A stretch of 64,000 bases of DNA from an uncultured Candidatus Saccharibacteria bacterium (GCA_938030095.1 CALHGK010000010.1:71975-135974); one strand, 5' to 3'; positions 23,835-52,722 are shown, numbered from the stretch's first letter. Translations and numbers: made by a program. Notes: generated from the letters alone by a model not told the origin.

Positions 23835-23959
23835 TTTATCCACATTTGTTCGCGAGTTATCCACACTTTAACAGAGGTAATACATTTTTGTGGAAAAACT
23901 CCACCCCTGTTGCTCTTTTTTCGCACATTTCGCTGTTGTATTTCTCACGGTTGTGGAAA
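23835..23959. promoter_or_regulatory. DnaA-box cluster upstream of dnaA (oriC / dnaA autoregulation region)
   Basis: TTATCCACA at 23835-23843 and 23856-23864; TGTGGAAAA (reverse TTTTCCACA) at 23888-23896 and 23951-23959. Confidence 0.75.
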
Positions 23960-24021
23960 AGTCGGTTTTTTCTTATACTAAAAAGAGTCATTGTATAACA
24001 AACAAGGAGCAGCAAAAACCA

Positions 24022-25404
24022 GTGTACCACAGCCTGTGGAAGAGTGTTTTGGGTGAAATTGAAGTGTCGATACCAAGCGGTGTTTTTTCGACGTGGTTTG
24101 CCAATACCGAGATGCTCAGCAACAAAGACGGGGTGATCACCATTGGTGTGGCGAATATCTTTGCGATTCGCCAGTTTGAGGTGCGCTATGATAGCATTGT
24201 CAAAGAAGCGCTCCAGCACAGTGGTGTGGAGGTGTCGCGCATCGCCTATGTGGTAAACAAACAAGGCAAAAAACGCACTGTGATTAGCCGCGAAACCACT
24301 GGCCAGCTAGCCGATCGCGTCGAGGAGCGAGCGGCAGCGCTCATCAGTAAGCCAACTACCTCATCACACTCTAGCTCTACCACACCAGCAACCAGCCTCA
24401 ATGCGCGCTATACCTTCCAGAATTTCATTGTCGGCTCGAGCAACGACCTCGCCTACACCGCCTGCCAAGCAGTCGCACATAGCCCTGGCACCAAATATAA
24501 TCCCCTCTTTATTTATGGTGGCGTTGGCCTTGGTAAGACGCACCTCATCCAAGCGGTAGGCAACGAGATCCTCGCGCGCGACCCAAGCAAAAAGGTCGCT
24601 TACCTGAGCTCGGAGACGTTTGTCAAAGAATTTATCGAGTCAATCCGCTTCAAAAAGGCTGGCTTTTCTGATCGGTATCGCAATGTCGATGTACTGATCG
24701 TCGACGATATGCAGTTTATTGCTGGGCGTGAGAAAACTCAAGAGGAGTTCTTTCACACCTTCAATACCCTCCACCAAGCTAATAAGCAAATTATCATCGG
24801 TAGCGACAAGCCACCGCACAGCATCCCTACCCTGACGGAGCGCTTGCGCAGCCGTTTTGAATGGGGAATGGCGATCGATATTCAGATGCCAGACTTTGAG
24901 ACGCGCTGCGCGATCGTCGAGACCAAGGCGAGCTTCGCTGGCGTAACGCTCGAGCGCGACACTGTGGAATACCTGGCCAAGAACGTCAAGACAAACATCC
25001 GCGAGCTTGAGGGTGCGCTCAATCAGCTCCTTGCCTATGCCGAAATGCGCGGCGTCACCCCTGATGTGATGACGGCAGAGGGTTTGCTTGGCAACGTCCG
25101 GCGCAGTCGCCCTCAGCATCTCACCGCCAAGCAGATTATCGACAAGACTGCTCGCCATTTCCAGATCGATAGCAAAGAAATCTGTGGTGCCAAGCGGGCT
25201 AAGCACATCGTTGTGCCACGGCAAATTGCCATGTACTTGCTGCGCAGCGAGCTCCACATGAGCTTTCCACAAATTGCTAATGAGCTAGGCCGCAAAGACC
25301 ACACGACCGCCATCCACTCAGTCGAAAAGATCGAAAAATCCATCAAGCTCGACTACCTCATCCGTGAGCAAGTCGCTGACATCCGGGACAAGCTCTATGC
25401 CTAG
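24022..25404 (+). CDS. dnaA: chromosomal replication initiator protein DnaA
   Basis: ORF from 23890; preferred GTG 24022 (VYHSLWKSVLGEI) 13 nt after AAGGAG; Walker A GGVGLGKTHL, AAA+ and C-terminal HTH (QIAMYLLRSEL...HTTAIHS). Confidence 0.9.
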   Translation: MYHSLWKSVLGEIEVSIPSGVFSTWFANTEMLSNKDGVITIGVANIFAIRQFEVRYDSIVKEALQHSGVEVSRIAYVVNKQGKKRTVISRETTGQLADRVEERAAALISKPTTSSHSSSTTPATSLNARYTFQNFIVGSSNDLAYTACQAVAHSPGTKYNPLFIYGGVGLGKTHLIQAVGNEILARDPSKKVAYLSSETFVKEFIESIRFKKAGFSDRYRNVDVLIVDDMQFIAGREKTQEEFFHTFNTLHQANKQIIIGSDKPPHSIPTLTERLRSRFEWGMAIDIQMPDFETRCAIVETKASFAGVTLERDTVEYLAKNVKTNIRELEGALNQLLAYAEMRGVTPDVMTAEGLLGNVRRSRPQHLTAKQIIDKTARHFQIDSKEICGAKRAKHIVVPRQIAMYLLRSELHMSFPQIANELGRKDHTTAIHSVEKIEKSIKLDYLIREQVADIRDKLYA

Positions 25405-26789: not shown

Positions 26790-27788
26790 ATGAAGATAAC
26801 GCGGCTAGCAGTGCAGCATGTGCGAATCCATACGCTCAAGACGCTTGACCTTGAGCCAGGCACAACGCTGATTTCTGGCCCAAATGGCTCTGGCAAGACA
26901 TCACTTATCGAGGCGATCCATATCGCGCTGCGTGGGACGTCCTTTCGTGGTAGTGACGAGGCGGTCTGCCAGCATGAACAAAAAAGTTATACGATTGACC
27001 TTGCGACGGATGAGCAACATTACCGCGTCCAGTACGATCGCCGACATGAGACGAAGCGCAAGCGTTTTATCGTTGATGGCACAACCTATGGTCGCCTCCC
27101 CTATGGCAAAAAATATCCGATCGTCCTCTTCGAGCCAGATACGCTGCGGATCATTACTGGCTCGCCGCAGCGTCGGCGTGATTTTCTCGATACGCTCATC
27201 CAGCAATATGATGCGCAGTATAGCCACGAGCTGAGCCGCTACCACCGAGCACTGCAGCAGCGAAATAAATTGCTCAAAGACCCTGCTCTTAGTGATGCGG
27301 CACTTTTCTCGTGGAATCTTATCTTGAGTCAGTATGGTGCGTCGATCATTACCAAGCGCCAGCGGGTGCTGCGTTATCTTAGTGTAAAAAGCAGTGCTAT
27401 GTACCAAAGTATTGCGGGCGTGGCGGATAGTGTTGCGCTACACTACTCGGAGGAGCGTAGCATGACCGCGCAGCAGCTCCTCGCCGAATATGAGCAAAAA
27501 ACAGCGTATGATACAGTGGTTGGCGCAACGAGTATTGGTCCGCACCGACACGATATCACAGTATTATTCCGTGGTAATCTAGCAGCCAAGACTGCATCGC
27601 GGGGCGAAATCCGCACCATTGTGCTTGCTCTCAAATTTCTCGAAGCAGCCTACATCCAGCAGCAAACAGGCCAAGCGCCACTCATTCTGCTCGATGATGT
27701 CTTTGGCGAGCTCGACCAACAACGCCAGCAGCGTCTCCTCAGCGAATTCGTCGATAACCAGATTGTGATGACGAGTGCGGTGGGATAG
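26790..27788 (+). CDS. recF: DNA replication and repair protein RecF
   Basis: 332 aa; Walker A GPNGSGKTSLIEAI; C-terminal LLDDVFGELD signature. Confidence 0.85.
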   Translation: MKITRLAVQHVRIHTLKTLDLEPGTTLISGPNGSGKTSLIEAIHIALRGTSFRGSDEAVCQHEQKSYTIDLATDEQHYRVQYDRRHETKRKRFIVDGTTYGRLPYGKKYPIVLFEPDTLRIITGSPQRRRDFLDTLIQQYDAQYSHELSRYHRALQQRNKLLKDPALSDAALFSWNLILSQYGASIITKRQRVLRYLSVKSSAMYQSIAGVADSVALHYSEERSMTAQQLLAEYEQKTAYDTVVGATSIGPHRHDITVLFRGNLAAKTASRGEIRTIVLALKFLEAAYIQQQTGQAPLILLDDVFGELDQQRQQRLLSEFVDNQIVMTSAVG

Positions 27789-27796
27789 ACTTCGCC

Positions 27797-28525
27797 CTAT
27801 ATATCAGTGTACATATAGCACCATGGTGGATTATTGCCGCCACACGGAACAACACGCTTCTTTTCTAGTTCTTCGGTAGTGGGATATATTTTGCCATTGA
27901 TCTTTATGTCGTATTTATCAATATCTTTGTCGTGTTTCTTAATATAGTTGAGGGCTTGGTCGACTTGCGATTGGCTCGTTTTGTCTGTTGTGACGATGCA
28001 CACACCAAGCCGATTTGACCGGTCGGTCGTGCGGTATGGGTTGCAGGTAACAATATAGAACCAGCGCGAGTAGTGAGGAAGTTTATTAATAAGAGGGCTC
28101 TCTTGAGATATCTTTGCTCCTCCTTGTGTTGCTTCGTGGCCGCCGATTGCTTCGCGGATATCGTTGTATTTTTCCTTCTTCGCTTCTCTCTTCGCTTCCT
28201 CAGTTAGTGGCTTCATGGCAAAGAACAGCTTCTTTTCTTCGCCTGGCTTGAGGTCTAGCTTGACCTGGTGGTCGGCAAAGCCTTTAGCCCGAAATGTGTA
28301 TATATGCGACCCGCTCTTTACAGCGTGCTTTGCCCGCGTTGTTACCTTTTGGTCTTTGATTGTATCATACGAGACAGTAAGGCTATCGGGGATAGCATAG
28401 ACGAGGATAGTGCTATCGTATTTGAGATTATCAACAAAGCGATATATCGTAAAGGTAATCATGCCAATGGCAAGCAGGGCAAATAGTGCGATAATTTGGT
28501 TACGTTTTTGATTGAGTATTTCCAT
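27797..28525 (-). CDS. bitopic membrane protein, VirB8/PrgL-like position and topology (terminal gene of T4SS operon)
   Basis: 242 aa; short N-terminus, one TM (IIALFALLAIGMITFTIY), ~210-aa extracytoplasmic domain; last gene after the hydrolase genes as prgL/traH are in Gram-positive T4SS. Confidence 0.4.
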   Translation of the reverse strand: MEILNQKRNQIIALFALLAIGMITFTIYRFVDNLKYDSTILVYAIPDSLTVSYDTIKDQKVTTRAKHAVKSGSHIYTFRAKGFADHQVKLDLKPGEEKKLFFAMKPLTEEAKREAKKEKYNDIREAIGGHEATQGGAKISQESPLINKLPHYSRWFYIVTCNPYRTTDRSNRLGVCIVTTDKTSQSQVDQALNYIKKHDKDIDKYDIKINGKIYPTTEELEKKRVVPCGGNNPPWCYMYTDI

Positions 28526-29879
28526 TGACTGTCCTCGCTAATACAACACCCGAGTTTCCAAGCATCCACTCGAGTGTTCCTTGTTTGATATAAGATGGGA
28601 CGTGATCGTATTGAGAAGCCTGCGCACCAACAAATCCATTACCAAGATCGCCTAGATAAAACAATGTATGGCCATTAAAGACTAAGATGTCGCCAGGCTG
28701 GAGATCACCCATACTTGGAGATTCTTTGGTATAGTATTTCTCGGGATGGCTGAGGACATAAGGCCGCTGATTAACCGTTCCAGCCGGTGGGTAATTTGGG
28801 TCTGCTCCACTCATACGCATCACTGTTGAAACATATTTACCACAATCGGTGTAGTCGGGACCTGCCTCCGGATTATACTGCTGGCGAGCATTTCGGTATT
28901 CTTCTTTTTCACCGCCATTACCAACTCGTCGTCCATCCTCCCAGGCAAGACTCTTAGCTGTTTCGACGATTGTTCCGCCAGCGGCACTTTTGCTGCCGTT
29001 TGCGGTACAGCCTGTGGCTGATGCATTTTGGGCGTTGGCACCATTGTTATTACCACCTTCGACTTGGATTTGGGATGAAGGCGGAGACAAGTTCTCTTCC
29101 TTGACAATTTGCTCAATCTTATCAATATATTCGGTAACAGTCGAGACATATTGGCTGTCGGTCGCATAGCCAGCATTTTTAATCTCCTGGAGGTATTTGC
29201 GCGGGTCGCCAGGATATTTAAGGGCTTCGCTGTAACGTGAATTGCTGGTGATAAAATCGCCATAGCCGAGCCAGCCAGCCTCGACGGTAGGATATTTGCG
29301 AAAGCCATCGACGATTGTTGTTCGGCCAGAGGCGTATTCCTCCTCGGTCTCCATATCGATCACCTCACCCGACCAGTTCCCGCCAGCCTTGATACCATGG
29401 AAATTATTTGCCTTGACGGTAAGCCCAGACTTGCCATAACCAGATTCAATAACCCCCTGGGCAAGGACTGTTTCGTATGGTGTGCCATACTTTTTGTTCG
29501 TTTCGACAGCCATCTTGACGTATTTGCGGACAAAGTCTTTGAGATCTTCTGCTGCAGTCCCGCTACTGCCATCACTGCTGCTGGTGGAGCTGGTAGAGCA
29601 GGTGGCTGCGTCGGGGTCGAAATGCTCGATATAGTTACCAGAAAAGAACCTTGCGTCTAAAGCTGAAGCGGGAGTTGACACGAGAGAGAATACTATCGCA
29701 AAAACAAGAGAGCTTATTCGATAGATAGTTGTGCAGTGAGAAAAGAGTTGTGTTGATGGAGAAAAAAGAGACGAAAAGCGAAGCAGTTGTTGGTGGGTGT
29801 GTATTTGGCAGCGAGTGACAAACACACAAAAAGAGTAGAAGCACTGAGTAAAAATAGCATGAGCCCACCGTATGATCAT
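28500..29879 (-). CDS. secreted peptidoglycan hydrolase: N-acetylglucosaminidase (FlgJ/Lyz2-type) domain + C-terminal CHAP/NlpC-P60-like domain
   Basis: ORF to 29951; start ATG 29879 chosen (ATGA overlap with upstream stop 29876). ETVLAQGVIESGYGKSGL...NNFHGIKA glucosaminidase motif; C-terminal TDCGKYVSTV...GDILVFNGHTLFYLG Cys/His papain-like pattern. Confidence 0.65.
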   Translation of the reverse strand: MIIRWAHAIFTQCFYSFCVFVTRCQIHTHQQLLRFSSLFSPSTQLFSHCTTIYRISSLVFAIVFSLVSTPASALDARFFSGNYIEHFDPDAATCSTSSTSSSDGSSGTAAEDLKDFVRKYVKMAVETNKKYGTPYETVLAQGVIESGYGKSGLTVKANNFHGIKAGGNWSGEVIDMETEEEYASGRTTIVDGFRKYPTVEAGWLGYGDFITSNSRYSEALKYPGDPRKYLQEIKNAGYATDSQYVSTVTEYIDKIEQIVKEENLSPPSSQIQVEGGNNNGANAQNASATGCTANGSKSAAGGTIVETAKSLAWEDGRRVGNGGEKEEYRNARQQYNPEAGPDYTDCGKYVSTVMRMSGADPNYPPAGTVNQRPYVLSHPEKYYTKESPSMGDLQPGDILVFNGHTLFYLGDLGNGFVGAQASQYDHVPSYIKQGTLEWMLGNSGVVLARTVNGNTQSKT

Positions 29880-32842
29880 GATGACCCTCCAACACGTCGA
29901 GCATACTCCCAGTGCCAAGCCTCTGGTTTGCTGCCGTTTGGTTCGGCCCATTCGGGATGGACATAGCCATATTTATGCGCATTGGCTTTGAGCCAATTGT
30001 ATGTAGAAGAACCAAAGTCTCCCACGCTGATATCTGCTGCAAGCCCCCAGCCATGGTTGGAGCTGCACGGTGGCGCTGGCTTGGCGAGGCCACCTTGGTA
30101 TAGTGGGTCACCTGGTGTTGCGTATGCAATTTGCCGTTGGCAGTCTCGGTATGCCTCGTTAATGCCGAAATCTGCACCAGTTTCTGCTTTGTATGCTTTG
30201 TTCATTTCTTCCATAGCGGCTGCAGCTTGCTTGTGCATCCTCTCGCCGGACGAAAATGACAGAGCTACTAAATCTCCTTCTGCTAGCTCGCCATTTTTGA
30301 GGCCGTTCCATGTTGATATAGAATCGCCACCTTCTGTAGCAGGCTGAGCTTGGTTAAATTCTGGCTCCCCGACTGCCGGGCCGCTGGGGGTACTACTGCT
30401 AGATTGGCTTGCGCCACCTCCACCAGAGATCGGTTCATTGTCCATAGTGTCGACGACGCGTTGGTCGATTGTGAAGAGTGCAGCATTGACTTTTTCCTCA
30501 GAGTCAAACTTGCAATAAGCGGTGTCGACGCCATTCTCGCCATCAGTACCTTTGCCACACTTCTCTTGCCATTCTTTGAGCGTGCCGCCAGTTGCTTCGC
30601 CTGTTTCTTCGTTGTATTGCCCAGCGAGAGATTGGGCAACCTCGTCGGGATCTTTATCAAGATTGAGTGCGCCATACGATATATTACAAAATGGCCCAGC
30701 AGCGACATCCTTGGGGATATTTGGGTCATCGCATGCTTGCCAAATCTTTTTCATGCGATCTGTCTCAGTATTGGCGCTGACTTTGTTACCAAAGAGAGCC
30801 GGTACAATATTCTTAGGGAGCGACACAAGATTATGAACAAAGCTACTTAAGTTAGAGAAGCTACCCATATATGGAATAAACGAACTGTAGAGGCTCCCCA
30901 CAAAGGTATACGGCGATGTTGCGTCAAATGGGCTCCGCTCAACGCGTTGCTCAGCAGCATAGGCAAGGTTGAGACGAGCTGTTTCTCGTTCGTAGGCGAT
31001 TGTTTGGTCGACATTGAGCATACCGTTGCCACCCGCTGCTGCTGCTTCGGAGAACATATTTACTGCACCACTCGTGAGGGCATCTCCAGCATCTTCACCA
31101 ACAGTAGCGCTGCTCACGAGAGTGCCCGCCATAGAATTTATGAGCTTACTGAGAATTGGTGCAAACACAGCAGAAATAACAGGAGCAGCTAAGTTTGAAA
31201 CCAACTCACCAACGACGCTTGTCCATCCACCAGCAACACTCATGAGAAGCTGACCGCCAGTACTGTTGATGAGTTTGCAGGATGTCTTTAGTGCACTAAT
31301 ATTAGATCCTAAGGCATTGGCAACGCCACCCATCTTCCGAGCCCAGCCACCACCAGGGACGTACTCCGTCCAGTTGGAGGTACCAGTTGGAGCTATTTCT
31401 TTCATTAGGCCATATTTGAGCCCCATTCCATCAGTAGCTGCTTTTTTGGTTACGTTGCCAGATTTGTTGACGAGTACAGTAGTGAGAATCGTCCCAAGCA
31501 CAGCAACGGCCATATAGTCTGTTGAGCCGGCCTTAATGTTGTCTGCCATCGTAAAGAACATCATGGCATAGCTAATAACCTGCGTCATTTGGATGAGACG
31601 AATCGTCTTGCTAATAGACTGAGCACCATCTTGTACCATACAGAGGCCGCCAGCAATCATGGCGACAATATTGCCAGTCTTGCCCACGCCATTTTTGATA
31701 ATATTGGCTGCTGCCTCTTTGCTGATAGATTTTGTTGCTCCTTCGGCGCCTTCACTTACTGCTTCTTTCGCGGCTTTGCCAACATCGGTGTCTTCAGTAA
31801 CCTTTTCTTTGCCTTCATCGTCATTTTCCTTGGCTTCGTATTTGCCATTCATTTCTTTGCCTTTGGTATTTTTGTCGATGTTTTCGCGGACTTCTTTCTC
31901 GCTTTTGGCACCAGCCAGTTTGTTCTTCTTGGTAAGAGAGAACTTTTTTATGACGCCATTGTTAAACACTTTATCGAAGAAAGCGACCCAGCGCGGTGCA
32001 TATGCGCGGTGCATAATTGCTCTGAACTCTGGATTCTCGTAGTATAATTTTTTGAATTCTGGGGGACCAACCGTTTGTTTTATACCATTGTCGTAAGTCA
32101 CCCGATAGTTTGCAACCTTTTCACCAAGAGTAGATTTCTTTAAGTCAAATTCTTCGGAGGGTTTAATAACATTCCCTTCTTTATCGAGAGCTTCAACTTG
32201 ATTTTTTTCAAACTGCTTTAGTAACCGGTTCGAGACACGATTATATTTACATCGTACGTTCACTACTGAGCAAATACCACTAGTTGCGGTGTTTTGGATA
32301 CGCTTGAACATTACCTTATTAGCACGCCGCTCGAAGCTGGTATTTTGTGAATTCCAGTGGTTGGTGAGATTTTCTTTGATATGAAGCAAAAGTAGGCTTG
32401 GCCCACCAAAAAATGAGAGCATTGAGCCACCACCAAGCAAAATAGCGCCAAGGATACCCATTGGTCCGCCCTTCTTAGAGAATATCGCACTCCGCGCTTT
32501 GGCAAAGCGAGATTTGGGCTCAGAGAGTTTACTATCGGGTGGAACTACCTTGTTGAACCAGTTATTATCGCTCCAGTTGCTCCCTGGCGCGCCCTCCTGG
32601 CCTCGAACAGAGTTGGCATAGTCGCTGCCAGTTGCGCCAGTGCCGCTGGCGTTGCTGCGTGACGATGAACCACTCCCACTATTCTCGCGTGACTGAAGGT
32701 CTTGGGCGGTGCTGGACTGGCTATGATCACCACTGCCAGCGTGGTTATTCCGACCAGCGAAGGTGTCGTTGCTCCAATGCGTATTCCCCGGATTATGCCG
32801 GTCGAGGTCGGGTTTTTGCTGGGAGGGGATGGGGGTAGGCAT
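29876..32842 (-). CDS. large membrane protein (PrgK-like position) with C-terminal peptidase M15 (VanY/L-Ala-D-Glu endopeptidase-type) cell-wall hydrolase domain
   Basis: 988 aa; Ser/Gly/Asn-rich N-terminus, several TM segments in the central region; C-terminal GERMHKQ...AYRDCQRQ...SSNHGWGLAADI...HPEW zinc-binding M15 motifs (SxHxxGxAxD). Confidence 0.6.
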   Translation of the reverse strand: MPTPIPSQQKPDLDRHNPGNTHWSNDTFAGRNNHAGSGDHSQSSTAQDLQSRENSGSGSSSRSNASGTGATGSDYANSVRGQEGAPGSNWSDNNWFNKVVPPDSKLSEPKSRFAKARSAIFSKKGGPMGILGAILLGGGSMLSFFGGPSLLLLHIKENLTNHWNSQNTSFERRANKVMFKRIQNTATSGICSVVNVRCKYNRVSNRLLKQFEKNQVEALDKEGNVIKPSEEFDLKKSTLGEKVANYRVTYDNGIKQTVGPPEFKKLYYENPEFRAIMHRAYAPRWVAFFDKVFNNGVIKKFSLTKKNKLAGAKSEKEVRENIDKNTKGKEMNGKYEAKENDDEGKEKVTEDTDVGKAAKEAVSEGAEGATKSISKEAAANIIKNGVGKTGNIVAMIAGGLCMVQDGAQSISKTIRLIQMTQVISYAMMFFTMADNIKAGSTDYMAVAVLGTILTTVLVNKSGNVTKKAATDGMGLKYGLMKEIAPTGTSNWTEYVPGGGWARKMGGVANALGSNISALKTSCKLINSTGGQLLMSVAGGWTSVVGELVSNLAAPVISAVFAPILSKLINSMAGTLVSSATVGEDAGDALTSGAVNMFSEAAAAGGNGMLNVDQTIAYERETARLNLAYAAEQRVERSPFDATSPYTFVGSLYSSFIPYMGSFSNLSSFVHNLVSLPKNIVPALFGNKVSANTETDRMKKIWQACDDPNIPKDVAAGPFCNISYGALNLDKDPDEVAQSLAGQYNEETGEATGGTLKEWQEKCGKGTDGENGVDTAYCKFDSEEKVNAALFTIDQRVVDTMDNEPISGGGGASQSSSSTPSGPAVGEPEFNQAQPATEGGDSISTWNGLKNGELAEGDLVALSFSSGERMHKQAAAAMEEMNKAYKAETGADFGINEAYRDCQRQIAYATPGDPLYQGGLAKPAPPCSSNHGWGLAADISVGDFGSSTYNWLKANAHKYGYVHPEWAEPNGSKPEAWHWEYARRVGGSS

Positions 32843-32848
32843 GACGGG

Positions 32849-34684
32849 CTACGACCTCACTGGCTGCTGGTATAAGCTGTTATTGGCCACTGGGTTGGTG
32901 GTGATGAATTGCGTCTCGGTCTCGCTGGCGAATATGCGGATATGAACGTGGTTTTGCCCAGCAAAGAAGAGGCCATCGCCCACCGGGAAGTTAGACAGGC
33001 GCTTACGCTCCTCCTCGGTGAGCTTAAAGACCTCAGCTAGCACATCCACTGCACTGGTCGATTGCTTAAGCAAGAGCTGGAGCGAGCTGTTTGCTACAAT
33101 AGCTCGGCCTTTCTCGCTCCCCATAAAGTCCTCTACGTCCTGCGTGATGGTCGTTAGGCCCAGAGAGTACTTACGAGCTCGCTTAGCTAGGCTGTGGAGA
33201 AACTCCGCCGAGTCTTCGTACTTCATCAGCTGCCAGGCCTCATCAACGATGAGCATCCGCCGGCGCTGTACGGTGCGGGCAATATTCCAGATGTGGCTCA
33301 GCACAATATACATTGCCACTGGCCGCAGGTCGTCTTCGAGGTCGCGGATATTAAACACCACCATGCTGTTATTAATATCAACGTTACTCTGCTGGCTAAA
33401 AATACCAGCGAAGGTGCCTGTGGTGTACTTCCGTAGGCGCTGAGCTAGCGATGGCCCTGCCCCACCCATGTGAAGGAGGGTGTCGTAGAGGTCAATGATC
33501 GTCGGTGGCTGAGAATTATGTGTTAGTGGATCGCTGGTAATACCAGCCCGGGCGTAGGTATCGATGAGCGCTTGGTCAAGATCGGCCTCCTCGGCTGGGC
33601 TGAGCAAGGCAATCTGTTGCCCGCCCACCAACGTGCCGCCCAGCATAAGCTTGAAGAGTCGCTGCAGGGTGATGAGATTAGCACGCAGCGCGTCGGTTGC
33701 TTCGTCGCTGTCGATTACTCGGGGGAGGTCGAAGGGGTTAATCCGCGTATCGCTGCTGAGGCTGAGGCGAATGTAGCTGCCGCCGACGGCATCGGCCAGC
33801 TTCTGGTACTCGTTCTCCGGGTCGATGACGAGGATGTCGGTGCCAAGCATCATACTGCGCAGTGCCTCGAGCTTAACGGTAAAGGATTTACCAGCACCAG
33901 ACTTTGCAAAGACGACCATATTCGCATTCTCAAGGCTAAAGCGGTCGAAGATGACCAGCCCTTGGTTGTGCTGGTTGACGCCGTAGAGAATCCCTTCGCC
34001 GTCACTTAGGTCGGCACTGGTAAAGGGAAAGCTTGTGCTCACCGCGCCAGTGTTCATGTTGCGGCGGACTTGCAGCTGGTCGGTCATTTGGGGGATGGTG
34101 CTGTTGAGGCCTTGCTCTTGCTGGTTGCTGGCGGTTTTACTGTAGACCATATTTTGGCCAAAGATTGTCTCGATGACGTGCTGGACAAAGCTCAGCTCCT
34201 CGAGGCTATCGGCATAGAGTGTGACGTAGAGCCCAAAGCGAAAGAAACGTTCGGCTCCAAGCTGTAGCTGGTCGCGCAATTCCTCGGCATCGGCCAGGGC
34301 AGCTTCGCGAGCTGGGTCACGCACTTTACCCTTCTCGGAGTTCAGCGCCATATCAGCCTCAAGCTGCGTCACCTTCTTGCGGAGGTTGTTGAGGACGATC
34401 TCCGTCTCGACAGGGTAAATAAACATGCTAATATCAAGCACTTGATCGATGTTGATCAATCCTGACAGCCAGCCTGTGTAGAGTTCACGTGGGTAGCCGT
34501 AGATGTAAAGTGTGCGGCCATACTTGGTGCCAATGCGGAAGTACGTGCTGTGGATCTCCAGACTGCTGGGAGCGATTAGGTCGCGCAGCGTCGTCATCCC
34601 CTTGATAAAGGCTTCCTCTACCTCTGCTTGCTCGCGCTCGCGCTGCTGGGCAGCAATGTCGATTGGATCGGGTCGTCGTGCCAT
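32849..34684 (-). CDS. virB4: type IV secretion ATPase VirB4/PrgJ/TraE family
   Basis: 611 aa (Gram-positive short form); Walker A FAKSGAGKSF, Walker B RRRMLIVDEAWQL (DEAW hallmark); N-terminal YGRTLYIYGYPRELYTGWL motif. Confidence 0.85.
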   Translation of the reverse strand: MARRPDPIDIAAQQREREQAEVEEAFIKGMTTLRDLIAPSSLEIHSTYFRIGTKYGRTLYIYGYPRELYTGWLSGLINIDQVLDISMFIYPVETEIVLNNLRKKVTQLEADMALNSEKGKVRDPAREAALADAEELRDQLQLGAERFFRFGLYVTLYADSLEELSFVQHVIETIFGQNMVYSKTASNQQEQGLNSTIPQMTDQLQVRRNMNTGAVSTSFPFTSADLSDGEGILYGVNQHNQGLVIFDRFSLENANMVVFAKSGAGKSFTVKLEALRSMMLGTDILVIDPENEYQKLADAVGGSYIRLSLSSDTRINPFDLPRVIDSDEATDALRANLITLQRLFKLMLGGTLVGGQQIALLSPAEEADLDQALIDTYARAGITSDPLTHNSQPPTIIDLYDTLLHMGGAGPSLAQRLRKYTTGTFAGIFSQQSNVDINNSMVVFNIRDLEDDLRPVAMYIVLSHIWNIARTVQRRRMLIVDEAWQLMKYEDSAEFLHSLAKRARKYSLGLTTITQDVEDFMGSEKGRAIVANSSLQLLLKQSTSAVDVLAEVFKLTEEERKRLSNFPVGDGLFFAGQNHVHIRIFASETETQFITTNPVANNSLYQQPVRS

Positions 34685-35643
34685 TAAAAATCTCCTTTGT
34701 GATATGCTGTCGAGGTTGGGACAGCTCCCTCGCCTTTGCGGACGAAGGTGGAAGTCACGTTATTAAAGTCGCCCAGCGGCTCGCGCACTGCTGTGTCGGG
34801 GTTGTACATGTTGTAATAGAGGGTGCCGAGCTCTTTGGTCTTGAGCTGCACTGCCCGTACACCAATCTGCATCAAGCCGTTGAGGATGGTGTCAGCCCGG
34901 TTGCGGATCTCCTCACGGGCTCGCTCGTAGGTTTCTTTGCTGATTTTCGTCACGGTGTTGGTGTTCTTGGGAGCGAAGAGCTTCGTGAAGAACCCTTTAC
35001 CTTGGTCGAGAATCGTCCCCTCCCCTGCTGGGTAATACGGAATGACGACGTAGAAGCTCTTGTCCATGATGTTGGCGTTTTGCGAGAGGTCGTCGATGAA
35101 GTTGATATAGTCTTCCATTAGCACACTCAACAACATATTATCTTGGGTGCGCTGGATAGCAACGAGCTTATCCAAATACGGGCCAATATCCACCCGCTGC
35201 GAGCGAATACAGATCTGCACCGGGAAGTACAGTGCATTGAGAAAGTTCTGGTAGCTATACTCTACCCCCTCGCGCTCACGAGCGCTCATGAGGTCAAAGT
35301 TGATCGACTCACAGGCGATGACGGCGCGGAAGCTACCATCACCCATGATGATCATATCATCGCGCAGCTCCGAGAGGAGGAGGCTATTCTGCGTGGTAGC
35401 GGGCTTGGGTGGAGCCTTTTTCTTGGTGTCTTGGGTGGGCTGATTATTCGTATTACCTTGCACAGCTGGTGGCTGAGCCGGTGCTTGCACTGCGGGGTAA
35501 TTGCCCTGTGGCGGAGCGGGATACTGCGGGTAATTGGCTGGTGCCTGGCCCGCTGGCGCAGCGCTCTGGCCTTGGCTATACCCAAACTGGCTGGGTGGCC
35601 CAGCTGGTGGTTGTTGATTGTTGGGTGAATTTGGCGACACCAC
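34684..35643 (-). CDS. T4SS operon protein of unknown function with 75-aa Pro/Gln/Ala-rich N-terminus
   Basis: 319 aa; stop overlaps virB4 start (TAATG at 34682-34686); first 75 aa low-complexity (PPAGPPSQFGYSQGQSAAPAGQAPANYPQYPAPPQ...), then a globular domain with no motif I can name. Confidence 0.4.
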   Translation of the reverse strand: MVSPNSPNNQQPPAGPPSQFGYSQGQSAAPAGQAPANYPQYPAPPQGNYPAVQAPAQPPAVQGNTNNQPTQDTKKKAPPKPATTQNSLLLSELRDDMIIMGDGSFRAVIACESINFDLMSAREREGVEYSYQNFLNALYFPVQICIRSQRVDIGPYLDKLVAIQRTQDNMLLSVLMEDYINFIDDLSQNANIMDKSFYVVIPYYPAGEGTILDQGKGFFTKLFAPKNTNTVTKISKETYERAREEIRNRADTILNGLMQIGVRAVQLKTKELGTLYYNMYNPDTAVREPLGDFNNVTSTFVRKGEGAVPTSTAYHKGDF

Positions 35644-35658
35644 TCTCCTTCTTATTTC

Positions 35659-37521
35659 TTAGCGCAAAGGGATGACAATCTCATCATCGTCATCATCCTG
35701 ACTAGCCTGCTCTTGATGTTGAATCCGATTGGCTTCATTGGCAATGGCAGCAACGGACAAATCAGAGTTGCTGGCTAGTCTAATTATATCAGGCGAGACG
35801 GTGTTTGTGCTAGTGTTTGGCGGCAGATTGTTGCGTTGCTGGGCGAGCTGCTCCTCGCGCAGGCGTTCCTCGCGCGTGGGGGTTGTCTTGGCGTAATAAC
35901 TGGGGTCGAGCGGCTGAATGACTGACTGATGAATGCTGGGGTATGGGTTATAGCGCACCGCCATATCGATGACATTTTTATCATCAGCCAGTGCTGAGCG
36001 ATCTCGGTAGGACACGGCGGCTGGGGTGGGTGCAAGAGCTGGTGCGGCTTGAACTGGTGCAACGGGTGGCTGCTGAGGTGGTGCTGGCTGCTGGGAAGGG
36101 TGTGGCGTAGGAGTGTGTGGATAATTGGGAGTTGGCGCTGTTGGGGTCGGTTGCTCTGCAGGTGTTGAAGTGAACGATGGCTGAGTATCGGTAGGAGGTG
36201 CTGCTTCAGCTGGTGGGTCGCTGGGCGTAGTTGTCGTGTGCGCGGCTGACTTTTGGGGTGGTACAAGTGGCACAGCATCAGTGGTAGGAGTGGCGTGCTG
36301 GCGCAGGTTGGCGTAGATCGCCTCGAAGGATGGTGTTTCTTCTGGCTTAGACTCTGGCGCAGCTTCTGCTGTGGGCTTGGGCGGTGTGTAGGGCTTGCTG
36401 AGGGCGTCTGGCAAGACCGAATCATGCGGAATAACGGCGGGCAGTGCCATTGGCAAAGACTGGAGTGAGTCATGCTCTCGCGGCATGGGCTGTGGCTCGG
36501 CAACAGGTGTTTCGTCATGCGCCGCATCATCCACTGGCGAAATCTCGTATACCTCGGTAGATTGCTGAGGTGGGTATGGGTTTGGTTGATTTTGGTAAGC
36601 ACTAGCATCGAGTGAAGGAACTTGCTGATGCGACGACGCCGTGCGATTCTCCGGGAAGCTCGTGGATGAATACGACACTGCTGGGCGCTGAGGTTCTGGT
36701 GTTGGGTATGGCGGCTCAGGCATACGAGGCTGAGATGGTGATACTGGTGCAAAGCCAGCGGCATCAACGGGTGGCTGGTACGGAGGTGTAGCCTGTGGTG
36801 GGATAGTTGGAGCTGGCTGCGGTGCTGCCTGGTATGGTTGCGGCTGAGCCTGTGGCCAGGCTGGCTGATATGGCACAGGAGCTTGCTGGAGTGGCTGCCC
36901 GTCGGCTACGGCAGGCAGTGCGGTTGGTGGAGCTTGCATGCGCTCAATGGCGGCTCGGCGCCGAGCTTGGTTGGATTGCTCGATGCGCCGCGTCATTGCT
37001 CGCGCTTCGCTGCTGTTGTCATCAAACATATCCGAAGTCTGCTGCGCCTCGAAATAGACATCACTAATCATCGACCCCTGTGCATCGGGCACGCGGGTGT
37101 GACGAATGGACCAGCCATGAGTATCAGCCAGCTGAGACAGATACGCTAGGCGGCGCTCGGCCTCGTCTTGGCTGAGGTTCTTCGTTCGCTCAATCTCCAC
37201 CTTCTCGGGCACTGTAATCTCGATGAGTGAGCTGATGCCATCAGGCTGCCACATGCGCCGGCGTGGCTTGGTGTAGAATGATATCACCGCCGCGAGGTAA
37301 ACTTCCATTGGCTGATCCTTACGCAGCGGCAAAGCTAATGCACCAAACAGCAGAATAATCGGCACCGGAATAACCGCCAGCGGCAAAAATACCTGCGATA
37401 ATCCCCATGCCAACGCAATTCCCGCCGCCGCAACCAGCAGATAAATAAACTGGCGAAAGCTAAACGGCCCAAGAATCTTATCCTCTGCCTCTACATCCTG
37501 CGCAACCTTATATCTCGACAT
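35659..37521 (-). CDS. PrgI/VirB3-like T4SS membrane protein with ~500-aa Pro/Gln/Ala-rich C-terminal extension
   Basis: 620 aa; N-terminal DVEAEDKILGPFSFRQFIYLLVAAAGIALAWG plus second helix VIPVPIILLFGALALPL matches PrgI-family two-helix pattern; remainder is low-complexity PQ-rich (QPQPYQAAPQPAPTIPPQATPPYQPP...). Confidence 0.5.
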   Translation of the reverse strand: MSRYKVAQDVEAEDKILGPFSFRQFIYLLVAAAGIALAWGLSQVFLPLAVIPVPIILLFGALALPLRKDQPMEVYLAAVISFYTKPRRRMWQPDGISSLIEITVPEKVEIERTKNLSQDEAERRLAYLSQLADTHGWSIRHTRVPDAQGSMISDVYFEAQQTSDMFDDNSSEARAMTRRIEQSNQARRRAAIERMQAPPTALPAVADGQPLQQAPVPYQPAWPQAQPQPYQAAPQPAPTIPPQATPPYQPPVDAAGFAPVSPSQPRMPEPPYPTPEPQRPAVSYSSTSFPENRTASSHQQVPSLDASAYQNQPNPYPPQQSTEVYEISPVDDAAHDETPVAEPQPMPREHDSLQSLPMALPAVIPHDSVLPDALSKPYTPPKPTAEAAPESKPEETPSFEAIYANLRQHATPTTDAVPLVPPQKSAAHTTTTPSDPPAEAAPPTDTQPSFTSTPAEQPTPTAPTPNYPHTPTPHPSQQPAPPQQPPVAPVQAAPALAPTPAAVSYRDRSALADDKNVIDMAVRYNPYPSIHQSVIQPLDPSYYAKTTPTREERLREEQLAQQRNNLPPNTSTNTVSPDIIRLASNSDLSVAAIANEANRIQHQEQASQDDDDDEIVIPLR

Positions 37522-37566: not shown

Positions 37567-40500
37567 CTAGTCTTGTTTTGCATTATCGCTCATAACGCGA
37601 AAGCGCTTAGTCGGGTCTTGACTCCACTCTCTAGCTTTGGATGCACGTCTATAGATCGCCTCATTACTCTGCATTTTTGCGTTGTAGAGTTGAGACCGCA
37701 GTGCTGCGTCAACTGCCAAGCCAGTAGCTTGTCTTGCTCGCATAAGCTGATCTTCGCTGATGCCACTAATACTGTCACTATTAAGAACTTCCATCATATC
37801 CTTGAAGGCTGGCTCGTCCATATCGGCCATCTTGGGTGCGTTGTATTTACCGCCTAGAGCACCTTCCACAACAGCTTGTTCATAATTAAATTCACCTGCG
37901 CGTAACTGGTCTGCAGCTTTCCCAGTCCACCATGGGTTCTTTGATGCGGCGGGTGATCGCAATAAAGCATCAGCCAAAGCAGCTCGATCACCTGATCCAA
38001 GATCATCATTGGCATGCTGTGTCAGAGCTCGCAACTGGCCGGAATTAGCACTTTTAGCTGCCTCTTTAATAATATATCGTCTATCAAAATCAGAAAAGGC
38101 TTTGGGGTCAAGAACATCGCCTTTTACTAGTTTGCCGTCCTTATCTCTTTTATAGCCCTGGATACCCTCTTCCCCCATTGCTAGCTGAAATATATCACTT
38201 TTTGAAAGAGCTTGTTCTTTCCCATCTTTATCTAGATACCGATAGTTTTCAAAGAATGACTCGGAAAGTTTCAGCTCATCCTCGGCCTGTTGGTCAATAA
38301 GACGTGAAGCGGTACTTTGGCCACGACGTACGGATCGGCCGATTGTGCCAGGAATGTTGCGCGCTTTATCGTTAATCCTCTTCATACCCCAACTTTGTGC
38401 TCGTCTAAAGGGGTTCTTACCTGTATAGGTACCAGCTTGTGCCTGAGCTCGTGCTAACTCTTTAGCTCGCTCTCTTTCTTGCATATATTGTCCGTAAGGT
38501 GATCGCTCAAGAGCTCCTTGTGCTTTGTTGCCAACAAAGTTTCCTGCTACTTTACCCATCTTCTCAGTTATATTTGCAAGACCCATCATAGAGGTCATCA
38601 TACTCGTTATACGTGACACTAGTAGAAGTGGTGTAAAGGTAAGAACAGACCCGATAATCTGTAAAACAAAACTTGTCTCACCCTTCATATTATTGATGAC
38701 TGTTGCACCAAGAATACAAGCACCATAGAGACAGCCAATAACAGGATATACTATAAGGAGAGTTTTAAATGTAGCCCACCATTTTTTGAACATACCTTCC
38801 GTGTTTGGTAATAAAAGAGCAACAAATGCAAGTGGTGCTAAGATTACCATAAAAATAATTATGGCTTGTCGAGCACCAAGTAGAAATACAGTTACAGAAA
38901 CAGTTACGACAATGAATATAAGACCAGTAATAACAGCCGATAGAGCAAAGAATCCTACAGTAAGACCAATAGCGGTGGCTGCAAGACCAACTAGCCCATC
39001 ACCTACTGCACTACCTTTTGTTGACCATCCGCCTTCTGGTCCAGCACCACTACCACCGAGTGAGCCAATAAAGTTAAATGAAGAAGACCCAATAATATTA
39101 GAGATATCAATTAAAATCGCACATACATAAAAAGACAAGTTAACCAAAACAATAGTCATAAGAAGTTTGGGTAGTAATTTTTTTATACCATAATTACTAA
39201 TGCCTAAACCGGTTACCTGAGAATAAATAACAACAAGGAATGCAATAATGAATACAATATTTGCAATATCGCGCATTTTTGACCAATAGTAGAAGGTAGA
39301 ACCTTCGTCTCGATTAGTGAGTATTCCAGAATTTATTTCAAGCATATGGGCAAGGATACTCGCAGAGTCTGAAGATATCTTTGCAAGGAAATTAACAACT
39401 GGACAAACAAGCCAACCAATACCATCAACAGCGCACTGGGTACCAGTTTCTTCTCCGTCTGCTGCTTGCTCAGCTCCTTCACCAGCTGCTGCATCGGCAC
39501 CATCTTTCTTCGCCTGGTCCTCTGCATTTTTTGCAGTTTCCTTTGAATTAACTTTGTTGATCGCATCTTTTATCTCTTTTTCTGATAGACTAGGCCACTT
39601 TTTATGCATACAAGAGGCGAGAGTCTCTTTTACAACAGCATCTTTGTCTTTGTTCTTCTCCTTTTGTCCTGTTACAGTGTTGAGTGTGATTTGCTTATAC
39701 CCTGCCTCATAGCATTTTTTGATAGATTTTTCCCATCCATCATCCTGACATTTTGATTGATCTGCTTTGCACGCTTTATCCTTTAGATGGGCTAAAGATG
39801 ATACATACGAATTATAGACAGCATCCTTTGCTGCAGAGTCTTGAGCCGCTTTTATTGCCTTATCTGCTTGACTTGTAACTCTTTTTGATTTGCTTATACA
39901 CCCTTCATTATCCGGTTCATCCACTGTGGTGCCTGAGTTACCATGATCTTTATAGACTGGTAGTTTGTGAGCAGAATATTTTGCGATTACTTTCTCAACA
40001 ACGTCTTTGTTATTACTATTTTTGCTGATTTTATTATATGATATGTAACCATTCTTGGCTGCATCCGCGAGTTTCACCTCACCTTCACTAAATTTTGATC
40101 GAGGAGCTTCAGACGAAAGCGAACAGTATGTCTTAAAGTCTTTATAATAGTATGTATATAGCTCCCCCGGCGATAAATATTTATCCTCTTTGTCGGTTGT
40201 AACACCAATTTTTGCTCGAATAGCCTTATTGACTGGTCCTTGGCGACCATTTGGGCCTGCTACCCAGGTGCCCTCACTGTTGTTGCTATAACCTGCTGCT
40301 TTCAAAAACTCTTCAGCACTACTGAAGCCCCATTTTGGTATTGCCTCAGTGTAGAGCTGACTACAGGTCTTTACAGCACCAAATAGAGTTTTCTTTTTAG
40401 TATTGAATCCTTTTCCTTTGAGCTGGCTGCCCGTGACATCATTACCGCTTATCTCATCAATACCCTCAAAACAGCCCTCATGAATATTATTGGTGTCTTG

Positions 40501-40677
40501 AGTATCAGGGCCAGGAATACTGTCCTGCGCTTTGTAATACGCCCACTTGTCTATTTTGTCATCATGGTCATCGGCATATGCCTTTTGATCTATAAACACG
40601 CTAGAACTAAGTACAAGAATAATAGCTAATGGGAAGAGTGAAAAGCGCTTCAGCTTAGATACAAGAGAGTTTGTCAT
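37567..40677 (-). CDS. VirB6/PrgH/TrbL-like polytopic T4SS membrane protein with ~420-aa extracellular N-domain and ~330-aa C-terminal domain
   Basis: 1036 aa; signal peptide (FSLFPLAIILVLSSSVFIDQKAYA), Cys-containing Lys-rich N-domain, 6-8 TM helices at aa ~430-720, then a charged cytoplasmic tail. Confidence 0.5.
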   Translation of the reverse strand: MTNSLVSKLKRFSLFPLAIILVLSSSVFIDQKAYADDHDDKIDKWAYYKAQDSIPGPDTQDTNNIHEGCFEGIDEISGNDVTGSQLKGKGFNTKKKTLFGAVKTCSQLYTEAIPKWGFSSAEEFLKAAGYSNNSEGTWVAGPNGRQGPVNKAIRAKIGVTTDKEDKYLSPGELYTYYYKDFKTYCSLSSEAPRSKFSEGEVKLADAAKNGYISYNKISKNSNNKDVVEKVIAKYSAHKLPVYKDHGNSGTTVDEPDNEGCISKSKRVTSQADKAIKAAQDSAAKDAVYNSYVSSLAHLKDKACKADQSKCQDDGWEKSIKKCYEAGYKQITLNTVTGQKEKNKDKDAVVKETLASCMHKKWPSLSEKEIKDAINKVNSKETAKNAEDQAKKDGADAAAGEGAEQAADGEETGTQCAVDGIGWLVCPVVNFLAKISSDSASILAHMLEINSGILTNRDEGSTFYYWSKMRDIANIVFIIAFLVVIYSQVTGLGISNYGIKKLLPKLLMTIVLVNLSFYVCAILIDISNIIGSSSFNFIGSLGGSGAGPEGGWSTKGSAVGDGLVGLAATAIGLTVGFFALSAVITGLIFIVVTVSVTVFLLGARQAIIIFMVILAPLAFVALLLPNTEGMFKKWWATFKTLLIVYPVIGCLYGACILGATVINNMKGETSFVLQIIGSVLTFTPLLLVSRITSMMTSMMGLANITEKMGKVAGNFVGNKAQGALERSPYGQYMQERERAKELARAQAQAGTYTGKNPFRRAQSWGMKRINDKARNIPGTIGRSVRRGQSTASRLIDQQAEDELKLSESFFENYRYLDKDGKEQALSKSDIFQLAMGEEGIQGYKRDKDGKLVKGDVLDPKAFSDFDRRYIIKEAAKSANSGQLRALTQHANDDLGSGDRAALADALLRSPAASKNPWWTGKAADQLRAGEFNYEQAVVEGALGGKYNAPKMADMDEPAFKDMMEVLNSDSISGISEDQLMRARQATGLAVDAALRSQLYNAKMQSNEAIYRRASKAREWSQDPTKRFRVMSDNAKQD

Positions 40678-40771
40678 ACACTACATATAATACACAAAAA
40701 TAAGTAAGAAAACCAGCCAAATACCATAAGTAATGTATGGTATTTGGCTGGCTTGGATGAAAGCTAGATTT

Positions 40772-41917
40772 TTAGCCTTCTTTGATATCGTTGAGAGGCG
40801 CGGTAACCCTTGGTTTGATTGCGCGAGCTTTATAGTCGTTTTCGTTTGTTGGATAAAAATAAGATACACGGGGGAACGAATGTACTGTGTAGTGGTTTGT
40901 GTTTCGATCTTTTTCGGTTATCTGCCTTTGGGTCTCAAGAGCGACGCGGTATGATTCTCCATTTTCGTATTCTCCATTTTCGTCTCCTATCTCTTGCACC
41001 TCACAGTATGCTGCCGAATATACCTGGGGTTGATTGGTTTCTTTGCCGTCGTTGATCGGGAATGGGTCTTCGTATTCTGCCATGATCGCACATTTCGTAA
41101 CGCGGAGAGCAATGCGGTCTTCTTTTTCTGGTTTTTTGCCTTTCGTATGAGCTTCATAAGCAGCTTCGACAAGGCGGCCATAATAACCGTGGGGTTTTGA
41201 TTGATTTTTATCGCCGCCATCTTTACTCTCATCATTGGAATCTCTGACGATATTAGAATGTGGGACGTCTATATAGTCTGCCAAACATCGCAGCACTGGC
41301 CATACTTCAACTTCTCTACCCTCTGCATTTGTGAATAAAGCTTTTGATTGGGCGTCATCACAGAGATCACGGAGAAGTCGATCGACATTATCAAACCATG
41401 TAATTGCTAGCTCTTTTGCTTGATTAGCACCTGATTCGGTAAGAATTTTCATAATATTGGGATCATCAAAGTTATTGCCAAAGAAGGTTTTACACGCAAG
41501 TCCTTTGTCATAATCACCCATTGTTTTCCACTTTTCAGAGTCAAACTCACTGAGATTCGCAAAGTTATACGACCGGCGAGGTTCGGGCCGCTCACTGCTT
41601 GGTGCGCCAGGCTCTACTGGTTCTTGGGTAGGTGACGGAGTTTCTGTCGCTGTGGCAGACGGGGTTGTTTCTGAGCTCGAGCTTGGAGATTCTGATGGTG
41701 ATGGTGTCTCTGAAGAGGCTGAGCTAGATCGGCCACGACCTAAAAGAGCTGCTGATAGACTTGCTCCAAAAGCCAAGGCTGCACCACCGAGACCTAAACC
41801 GATAAGGAAGCCTCGTCGACCGGTTTCTTTTCGTTCACGTGTGGCTGCATTATCTGGTTTTTCAGATCCGCTAACGCTTGCCGGATAACTATTGCGTATT
41901 TCTGTCATAAGCTTCAA
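40772..41917 (-). CDS. secreted protein with twin-arginine (Tat)-type signal, Ser/Thr/Pro-rich linker and uncharacterised C-terminal domain; first gene of T4SS operon
   Basis: 381 aa; TGRRGFLIGLGLGGAALAFGASLSAA (S/T-RR-x-FL motif + h-region + AxA); STP-rich linker; C-terminal ~260 aa unknown. Confidence 0.4.
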   Translation of the reverse strand: MKLMTEIRNSYPASVSGSEKPDNAATRERKETGRRGFLIGLGLGGAALAFGASLSAALLGRGRSSSASSETPSPSESPSSSSETTPSATATETPSPTQEPVEPGAPSSERPEPRRSYNFANLSEFDSEKWKTMGDYDKGLACKTFFGNNFDDPNIMKILTESGANQAKELAITWFDNVDRLLRDLCDDAQSKALFTNAEGREVEVWPVLRCLADYIDVPHSNIVRDSNDESKDGGDKNQSKPHGYYGRLVEAAYEAHTKGKKPEKEDRIALRVTKCAIMAEYEDPFPINDGKETNQPQVYSAAYCEVQEIGDENGEYENGESYRVALETQRQITEKDRNTNHYTVHSFPRVSYFYPTNENDYKARAIKPRVTAPLNDIKEG

Positions 41918-49740: not shown

Positions 49741-50053
49741 GGCACATATTATACCACTTTTGGTAATATTTAAAACCATGAGAGATATGATTTTTGGGTA
49801 GAGCACACGTGCGAGAAAAAAGTGAAGAATTTCTCTTAATTTCAGCCGTATTGTTTCGTCATTTTAGCTGATAAAGTGGCGAAATTTGTCGTTATGTTAA
49901 TTAATATTCTCGTAGAATGTTGACCTGAGTATCGCATGGGACGGAAAAGGAGAAGTTGAGAGTAAGCCTACTATTTAAGGCTCAAACTCATGCAATTTGA
50001 TTTTTTATTATCACACTACTCTCTCATCTTCCCTGCTCTGCTATAATAACCCT

Positions 50054-52525: not shown

Positions 52526-52722
52526 AATAATAGCGCTAGTATAGCATTTTTGAGTGGTGAGAGGAAGAGAGCGATGGTAATGAGCGACACACAATTGGTT
52601 ATAACGAAGGAGTCTAGAGAGATAGTACCTTGCATCAGACTCATCATTTCGTCGTGGTGTTCATGAATGTTTTTGTAATAATCATCAGTGAAAATCCGCC
52701 GCAAAGTTGCTATACTAATGTT

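Follow-up and report, generated by a model that had tools for sequence, protein, structure and literature searches.

Saccharibacteria are tiny parasites that need the machinery of a type IV secretion system (T4SS) to grow on their host bacteria, and a 2024 perspective described the role of this essential Saccharibacterial system as 'completely unknown'. Wall hydrolases are among the few T4SS parts whose chemistry can be predicted and assayed, and testing them on the sacculi of epibiont and host would be a direct way to ask whether the T4SS reaches into the host. We analysed a 64,000-nucleotide (nt) stretch of DNA from an uncultured Candidatus Saccharibacteria bacterium (GCA_938030095.1, CALHGK010000010.1:71975-135974; hereafter the window), in which two adjacent genes, A (988 residues, 29876-32842) and B (459 residues, 28500-29879), probably encode the peptidoglycan-hydrolase module of such a T4SS. 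Judged by its sequence, the window comes from a Nanosynbacter-like Saccharibacterial chromosome, and the hydrolase pair lies among the genes of a chromosomal T4SS. Genes A and B, the small gene C that follows them, and all features described within these genes lie on the minus strand.

Counterparts in described systems

The closest described locus is that of Candidatus Southlakia epibionticum ML1, in which the 1114-residue SEML1_0007 ends in a Hedgehog/DD-peptidase fold, with Foldseek neighbours named M15B or M23, and the 644-residue SEML1_0006 combines a glucosaminidase domain with domains of the phage tail lysozyme and cysteine-proteinase kinds (Wang et al. 2023, Cell; PMC10633639, Tables S1-S2). 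The ECOD template for SEML1_0007, e6n7gC1 (6n7g), is a Sonic hedgehog entry, no Pfam match is on record for its C-terminal domain, and SEML1_0005 to SEML1_0008 are essential by transposon sequencing (Tn-seq; PMC10633639). A survey of the Patescibacteria T4SS literature also notes the S. epibionticum hydrolase genes, and reports that a structure-based search of the S. epibionticum proteome found no VirB8 homologue.

The window and the S. epibionticum locus share the order dnaA-dnaN-recF followed, on the opposite strand, by one or more small membrane proteins, a hydrolase, a large membrane protein with a C-terminal peptidase, a split VirB4 and PrgI. They differ in that gene A has a clear Pfam VanY match, whereas SEML1_0007 was assigned by ECOD fold and Foldseek only; in that SEML1_0006 has an extra Phage_lysozyme2 domain, which the 459-residue gene B product lacks; and in that S. 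epibionticum has two small genes (SEML1_0004 and SEML1_0005) where the window has only gene C. As the S. epibionticum counterpart has already been annotated and is known to be essential, the gene pair of the window is itself no discovery. What looks new is the exchange of the enzyme modules as a block, described below, and no published description of this exchange was found in a limited literature search.

Outside the Saccharibacteria, TcpG of the Clostridium perfringens pCW3-type Tcp conjugation locus resembles gene B in that a GH73 domain is followed by an NlpC/P60 domain (Glucosaminidase, 1.6e-39; NLPC_P60, 1.2e-27) and in that its gene lies directly downstream of a VirB4-like ATPase. However, the C-terminal domain of TcpG is a canonical Pfam NLPC_P60 domain, whereas that of gene B is too divergent for any Pfam model, and TcpG is plasmid-borne, serves conjugation and has no preceding M15-tailed partner, whereas the window pair is chromosomal and includes gene A. 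CwlT and TraG are also monoderm VirB1 analogues in which a glycosidase is combined with a cysteine peptidase. Gene B has this VirB1-analogue layout, with an N-terminal signal or anchor, then GH73 and then an NlpC-like domain, and it lies inside a T4SS cluster.

The pair as a whole is best compared with PrgK of Enterococcus faecalis pCF10 (LytM, SLT and CHAP domains), which is likewise a membrane-anchored T4SS hydrolase whose LAS metallopeptidase, glycan hydrolase and Cys/His peptidase modules all lie outside the membrane. PrgK is one polypeptide, whereas in the window these functions are spread over two; its glycosidase is SLT and not GH73, and it has no counterpart of the approximately 650-residue core of gene A. 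A 2024 paper on PrgK showed a degenerate LytM domain that binds no metal, and found in vitro activity to be confined to the SLT domain, a muramidase. In contrast, all three catalytic sets are intact by sequence in the window pair. The M15 enzymes VanY, VanXY and LdcB (MEROPS M15B) and the Ply500-type phage peptidases (M15C) are free-standing enzymes of wall maturation or resistance, or endolysins, whereas the M15 domain of the window forms the tail of a 988-residue, T4SS-linked membrane protein.

Gene A: a membrane protein with a C-terminal VanY-type peptidase domain

The predicted gene A product is a bitopic membrane protein consisting of a disordered Ser/Gly/Asn-rich N-terminus (residues 1-126), a transmembrane helix, a helical core, a Gly/Ser linker and a VanY/M15 domain. 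The transmembrane helix (residues 127-152, 32387-32464) was located by hydropathy scan, and helices cover residues 126-163 in a structure model whose pLDDT (the predicted confidence score) was 73 overall and above 90 in the core. The conserved core (residues ~153-800, about 650-680 residues, 30443-32386) is mostly alpha-helical, and searches with it returned no Pfam family and no structural relative in the PDB. Eight of its cysteines are invariant or nearly invariant, which fits an extracytoplasmic location for the ectodomain, and everything past the transmembrane helix would lie outside. The possibility that gene A is itself a VirB6-like channel subunit was ruled out, as it has one clear transmembrane helix compared to the 6-7 of another gene in the window (37567-40677).

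The zinc peptidase domain (residues 867-981, 29900-30244) was identified by a match to Pfam VanY (PF02557) with a score of 47.7 bits against a cut-off of 25 (E 1.7e-12). Its SxHxxGxAxD and ExWH motifs line up in alignments to VanY-type structures, as does the predicted catalytic set of zinc ligands H930, D937 and H977, catalytic E974 and substrate-binding R899, and the modelled domain has the Hedgehog/DD-peptidase fold. R899 was kept in 65 of the 67 VanY-type relatives; the other M15 catalytic positions had partly been used to choose these relatives, and conservation there is not independent. The nearest structures were the DD/LD-carboxypeptidases VanXY, VanY and LdcB, ahead of the L-Ala-D-Glu endopeptidase Ply500, and DacB was also among the nearest. 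This suggests that the domain may trim stem peptides instead of cutting cross-links, although a role as a wall-opening stem-peptide peptidase is plausible. The tail of gene A also matches a tape-measure family at 1.7e-17.

Gene A belongs to an unnamed Patescibacterial, T4SS-linked family, which became apparent from an exhaustive search of cluster representatives (1022 at E ≤ 1e-3 and 281 at E ≤ 1e-30), whereas a word-indexed profile search gave only 11 proteins that were already known. Of the 149 best representatives, 29 carried a VanY module at the C-terminus, 26 Peptidase_M23, 7 CHAP, 3 NLPC_P60, 3 Amidase_3 and 2 Exo_endo_phos; the remainder had a short tail or a Pfam-negative domain. M15 and M23 peptidases are both members of the LAS group of zinc enzymes, and within the family VanY and M23 are, on this comparison of sequences, interchangeable C-terminal modules of about equal frequency. 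The commonest of the Pfam-negative tails has invariant H..G.A.D and D..H.H motifs and a weak match to the Sonic hedgehog zinc site (E 0.06), and is presumably another LAS-type peptidase. An earlier note on this DNA had regarded both the M15 and the glucosaminidase domains as substitutions relative to described T4SS hydrolases. The first view is overstated in light of the VanY and M23 counts just given, and the second is wrong if the substitution is taken as unprecedented, because TcpG already combines GH73 with NlpC/P60 after a VirB4-like ATPase. Some family members (within P0133-P0280) have an endonuclease/exonuclease/phosphatase domain in place of the wall peptidase, sometimes together with M23, and others in the same set end in an Amidase_3 or YDG domain.

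Gene B: a GH73 domain joined to a divergent cysteine peptidase

The longest open reading frame (ORF) for gene B spans 28500-29951 (483 residues), but the start is most likely the ATG at 29879, giving a protein of 459 residues. This codon (29877-29879) overlaps the TGA of gene A (29876-29878) as ATGA and is preceded, across a 6-nt spacer, by GGAGG at 29886-29890, so that the whole signal occupies 29876-29890. The overlap and the GGAGG sequence together indicate that the two genes are translationally coupled. The same Met start is used in the database gene calls for P0001 (97% identical) and P0002 (92% identical). A start closer to the signal segment was also considered, and rejected: the sole alternative in-frame start codon ahead of that segment is a GTG 18 codons downstream, whereas the ATG has both the GGAGG and the ATGA overlap.

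The product is a predicted exported, two-domain peptidoglycan hydrolase. A hydropathy scan located a hydrophobic signal or anchor at residues 49-76 (29652-29735), ending in STPASA immediately before LD, and the homologues of gene B have ordinary signal-like N-terminal segments. The first enzymatic domain is a GH73 N-acetylglucosaminidase domain (residues 122-256, 29112-29516; Pfam Glucosaminidase PF01832, E 6e-28, 98.4 bits against a cut-off of 30.2), which also matches FlgJ structures at E 2.5e-15. The predicted catalytic E145 (in VIESGYG) and the hairpin residue E180 align with E184 and E223 of FlgJ, and E180 was present in all 49 of the homologues compared.

The second domain (residues ~299-455, 28515-28985) has the NlpC/P60-CHAP cysteine-peptidase fold, with C346, H404 and Q420 as the third polar residue. 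As Pfam gave no match here, the fold had to be established via structure prediction. A model built on 51 homologues had a pLDDT of 89.6 and a papain-like alpha+beta fold, and C346 (in DCGKYV) and H404 (in NGHT) were at least 90% conserved in the unselected alignment of the 51 sequences. The third polar position varied among Q, S, H and E, a variation that the NlpC/P60-CHAP family tolerates, and the DCG..V, PGD, GHT and xAS motifs look similar to those of NlpC/P60 enzymes. More distant homologues carry a true CHAP domain at the same place, the structural neighbours of the domain include the type VI secretion effectors Tse1 and Tae3, and gene B matches a large endolysin family at 7e-46. In the gene B homologues the glycosidase domain is bracketed by two almost invariant cysteines, one in YDPxxxxC after the signal (~29590) and one in CxxxxxG before the cysteine peptidase (~28990), which might form a disulfide.

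Much of what the earlier note had read from the interval 28500-32842 is borne out by this analysis. The interval consists of exactly two minus-strand ORFs, and every motif quoted was found, SSNHGWGLAADI in gene A and GVIESGYGKSG, NNFHGIKA, TDCGKYV and GDILVFNGH in gene B. The hydrolase function is indeed split over two genes coupled by the ATGA overlap and GGAGG, and these carry three different types of peptidoglycan-cleaving domain whose catalytic residues are intact by sequence, active-site alignment having recovered the zinc ligands H930/D937/H977, E145 and the C346/H404 pair. The domains named in the note fared less evenly in profile searches: M15/VanY and Glucosaminidase scored above their cut-offs, whereas the CHAP/NlpC-like domain had no Pfam match and owes its assignment to the structure model. 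Of the suggestion that the M15 domain is of the VanY/L-Ala-D-Glu endopeptidase type, the VanY part stands on the Pfam match, but the endopeptidase part is made less certain by the carboxypeptidases found ahead of Ply500.

The enzyme block is exchanged between relatives

To survey the pair across species, one genome per species was scanned with a seven-sequence alignment, which gave 270 gene A relatives, of which 80 loci were kept. These were nearly all Saccharibacteria genome bins, including Nanosynbacter (four had generic 'bacterium' titles), and the closest relatives had 98% protein identity. For 75 Saccharibacteria loci the modules were typed by BLAST against domain exemplars, with spot checks by Pfam. 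The pair is conserved across Saccharibacteria: a gene-B-sized ORF adjoins gene A in 71 of the 75 loci, the other four having none within the locus sequence, and the two genes are spaced by -76 to +32 nt in 68 of these pairs and by 202-450 nt in three. A match of gene B to one or more hydrolase exemplars was obtained in 68 of the 71 loci.

The modules themselves varied. Gene A ended in VanY in 42 loci and in a Hedgehog-like LAS domain in 28, with no recognisable peptidase in five distant members. Gene B was most often of the Phage_lysozyme2 plus NlpC-like type (36 loci; the ~620-residue forms also had a weak GH73 match), followed by GH73 plus NlpC-like, as in the window (21), and Phage_lysozyme2 plus Peptidase_C39_2 (10); two loci had the NlpC-like match alone, two matched no exemplar, and in four gene B was absent from the locus sequence. 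SLT and CHAP versions of gene B also occur among database homologues.

A blastn comparison of the window with two related loci (L015 and L018) showed how these types replace one another. Identity was ~92% from 37557 down to 30429, no similarity was detectable from 30428 to 27787, and identity returned to 92.6% from 27786, the end of recF. The intervening block of ~2.6 kb (27787-30428) spans the linker and peptidase domain of gene A together with the whole of genes B and C. In L015 and L018 it is occupied by a Hedgehog-like LAS domain, a Phage_lysozyme2 plus C39_2 enzyme and an unrelated 188-residue membrane protein. The block is thus swapped for non-homologous equivalents between congeners. 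The reverse case was seen in another locus (L040), where genes B and C are 91% identical to those of the window and the core of gene A has been replaced (35% protein identity). Hypervariability is seen in the VirB6-like gene too: its flanks are 85-94% identical to related genomes, but no more than a ~900-nt piece of it aligns, at ~70%, even against the closest genome (L002). Such modular exchange supplies natural variants of the enzymes, and a candidate marker of host specificity, in a mostly uncultivated group.

Gene C (242 residues, 27797-28525) has one transmembrane segment and overlaps the end of gene B by 26 nt. It had no Pfam or PHROG family match, and it stands where the PEGA-domain gene SEML1_0005 stands in S. 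epibionticum. It is exchanged with the block, and could be a cognate regulator or an immunity-like partner of the hydrolases. The 188-residue replacement (at about 14225-14837 in L015) was found only in the 10 loci in which gene B is of the Phage_lysozyme2 plus Peptidase_C39_2 type.

Function of the pair and alternative explanations

The dnaA gene (23890-25404), dnaN and recF lie on the plus strand of the window, and a minus-strand T4SS operon converges on recF in the order VirB6-like gene, PrgI/VirB3 fusion, split VirB4, gene A, gene B and gene C, with a gap of only 6 nt between the end of VirB4 and the start of gene A. The arrangement of genes A, B and C with VirB4 and PrgI beside dnaA-dnaN-recF recurs in S. 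epibionticum, and TcpG provides a precedent for the operon position. We consider it probable that genes A and B are the peptidoglycan-hydrolase module of this Saccharibacterial T4SS. Gene A would be anchored in the membrane by its one helix and display its helical ectodomain outside the cell, with a Gly/Ser linker carrying the VanY/LdcB-type zinc peptidase at its end. Gene B would be made in step with gene A through the ATGA overlap, exported by means of its N-terminal Sec-type signal, and would join a FlgJ/TcpG-type GH73 glycan-strand hydrolase to an NlpC/P60-fold cysteine peptidase. Between them, the two proteins would cleave both glycan strands and stem peptides at sites where the T4SS channel or its pilus crosses a wall, that of the cell itself and possibly that of the host too.

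Several points weigh against this interpretation. In PrgK one domain of three is active, so intact motifs do not guarantee three working enzymes, and in structure the M15 domain comes closest to carboxypeptidases, enzymes that shorten stem peptides and would not be expected to open the wall. The C-terminal 195 residues of gene B, taken in isolation, had no Pfam match even at E = 10. As the core of gene A has no known fold, its link to the T4SS comes from gene position only. Enzymatic activity, bond specificity, the dependence of the T4SS on the enzymes and the wall that is cut are all predictions.

The alternative that survives best, although we consider it rather unlikely, is close to a suggestion of the earlier note: that the enzymes mainly attack the actinobacterial host wall from outside, in the manner of phage virion-associated lysins, breaching or digesting it at the contact site to give access for the T4SS or its pilus or for feeding, and that the block is matched to the peptidoglycan type of the host. 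That the three catalytic sites are intact by sequence, unlike those of PrgK, would suit such a role, as would the essentiality of the S. epibionticum orthologues for epibiotic growth, but the latter is equally well explained by a need to cross the cell's own wall. Replacement of the block between congeners whose flanks are ~92% identical, together with the mosaic structure of the gene A core and of the VirB6-like gene, is expected of genes that interact with a host. The range of modules in related loci and homologues is also wide: the glycosidase may be GH73, SLT or Phage_lysozyme2, the last sometimes with a weak GH73 match in addition; the cysteine peptidase may be NlpC-like, CHAP or C39_2; and the tail of gene A may be VanY, Hedgehog-like LAS, M23, CHAP or Amidase_3. 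However, module shuffling is common to all peptidoglycan hydrolases, and the exchange could mirror differences in wall chemistry among the Saccharibacteria themselves, a FemAB gene being present in the window. A likeness to phage virion-borne lysins is seen in the match to a tape-measure family (1.7e-17) and in a diffocin hub-hydrolase as the top Foldseek match, but the gene A enzyme is tethered to the membrane of the cell that makes it.

A more specific form of this proposal, which we regard as doubtful, is that the block 27787-30428 is a horizontally exchanged wall-breaching cassette that acts on host peptidoglycan from outside, its variant being matched to host wall chemistry and setting which bacteria are parasitised, with gene C as a possible regulator or protector.

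It is improbable that the T4SS delivers these proteins as antibacterial toxins, with gene B, and perhaps a cleaved C-terminus of gene A, acting as effectors like the T4SS peptidoglycan hydrolases of Xanthomonas and Stenotrophomonas and gene C providing immunity. Gene C is swapped along with the hydrolases, and its 188-residue type is confined to loci with Phage_lysozyme2 plus Peptidase_C39_2, but no more than two main types of gene C underlie this covariation, shared ancestry confounds it, and gene C has no recognisable family. The presence of Tse1 and Tae3 among the structural neighbours of the cysteine peptidase is also consistent with an effector role, but gene B has an N-terminal Sec-type signal and not a C-terminal T4SS signal, and according to the S. 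epibionticum paper neither a coupling protein nor a relaxase could be recognised in that system.

Finally, it is equally improbable that the pair are housekeeping autolysins for growth, division, daughter-cell separation or stem-peptide trimming that lie beside T4SS genes and have nothing to do with secretion. In favour of this reading, the M15 domain has its closest structures among carboxypeptidases of wall maturation (LdcB, DacB, VanY), GH73 and NlpC/P60 enzymes are common autolysins, and the Tn-seq essentiality would also fit a division role. Against it, the tight operon position is kept across most of the 75 loci and in S. epibionticum, TcpG occupies the same operon position, and housekeeping enzymes of division do not usually exchange modules so rapidly.

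Other genes of the operon and its surroundings

The remaining genes of the operon, all on the minus strand, begin with that for a VirB6-like polytopic protein (1036 residues, 37567-40677), in which hydropathy analysis places 6-7 transmembrane segments at residues 466-690. It is followed by the PrgI/VirB3-like fusion (35659-37521; Pfam PrgI, 1.8e-12), by the N-terminal part of VirB4 (319 residues, 34684-35643), which has weak matches to VirB4 N-terminal and TrsD models, and by the VirB4 ATPase part (611 residues, 32849-34684), which matches NCBIfam conju_CD1110 (CD1110-type VirB4) at 1.2e-113 and the Pfam TraG P-loop. The two VirB4 ORFs overlap by 1 nt, and the VirB4 of S. epibionticum is split likewise (SEML1_0009/0008). 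In the fusion protein the PrgI/VirB3-like domain occupies residues 5-90 and is followed by an extension of ~530 residues without a family match; the S. epibionticum counterpart is only ~300 residues long.

A terminator-like hairpin of 19 pairs (40710-40754, minus strand) lies between a gene of 381 residues (40772-41917) and the VirB6-like gene, and because of it the T4SS operon proper may start past this point. A scan for sigma-70 promoters found 19, compared to 18.6 expected in shuffled sequence, and so did no better than chance.

Farther along the minus strand are genes for a Mur ligase and a FemAB-family protein (1.4e-88), at 48316-49806 and 51269-52594. Their presence suggests that the organism's own peptidoglycan may contain an interpeptide bridge, and this predicted bridge is relevant to which bonds of that wall the peptidases could attack. 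On the plus strand, a 955-residue protein (60388-63255) has right-handed beta-helix/NosD and leucine-rich-repeat matches, which make it a possible surface adhesin or polysaccharide-binding protein.

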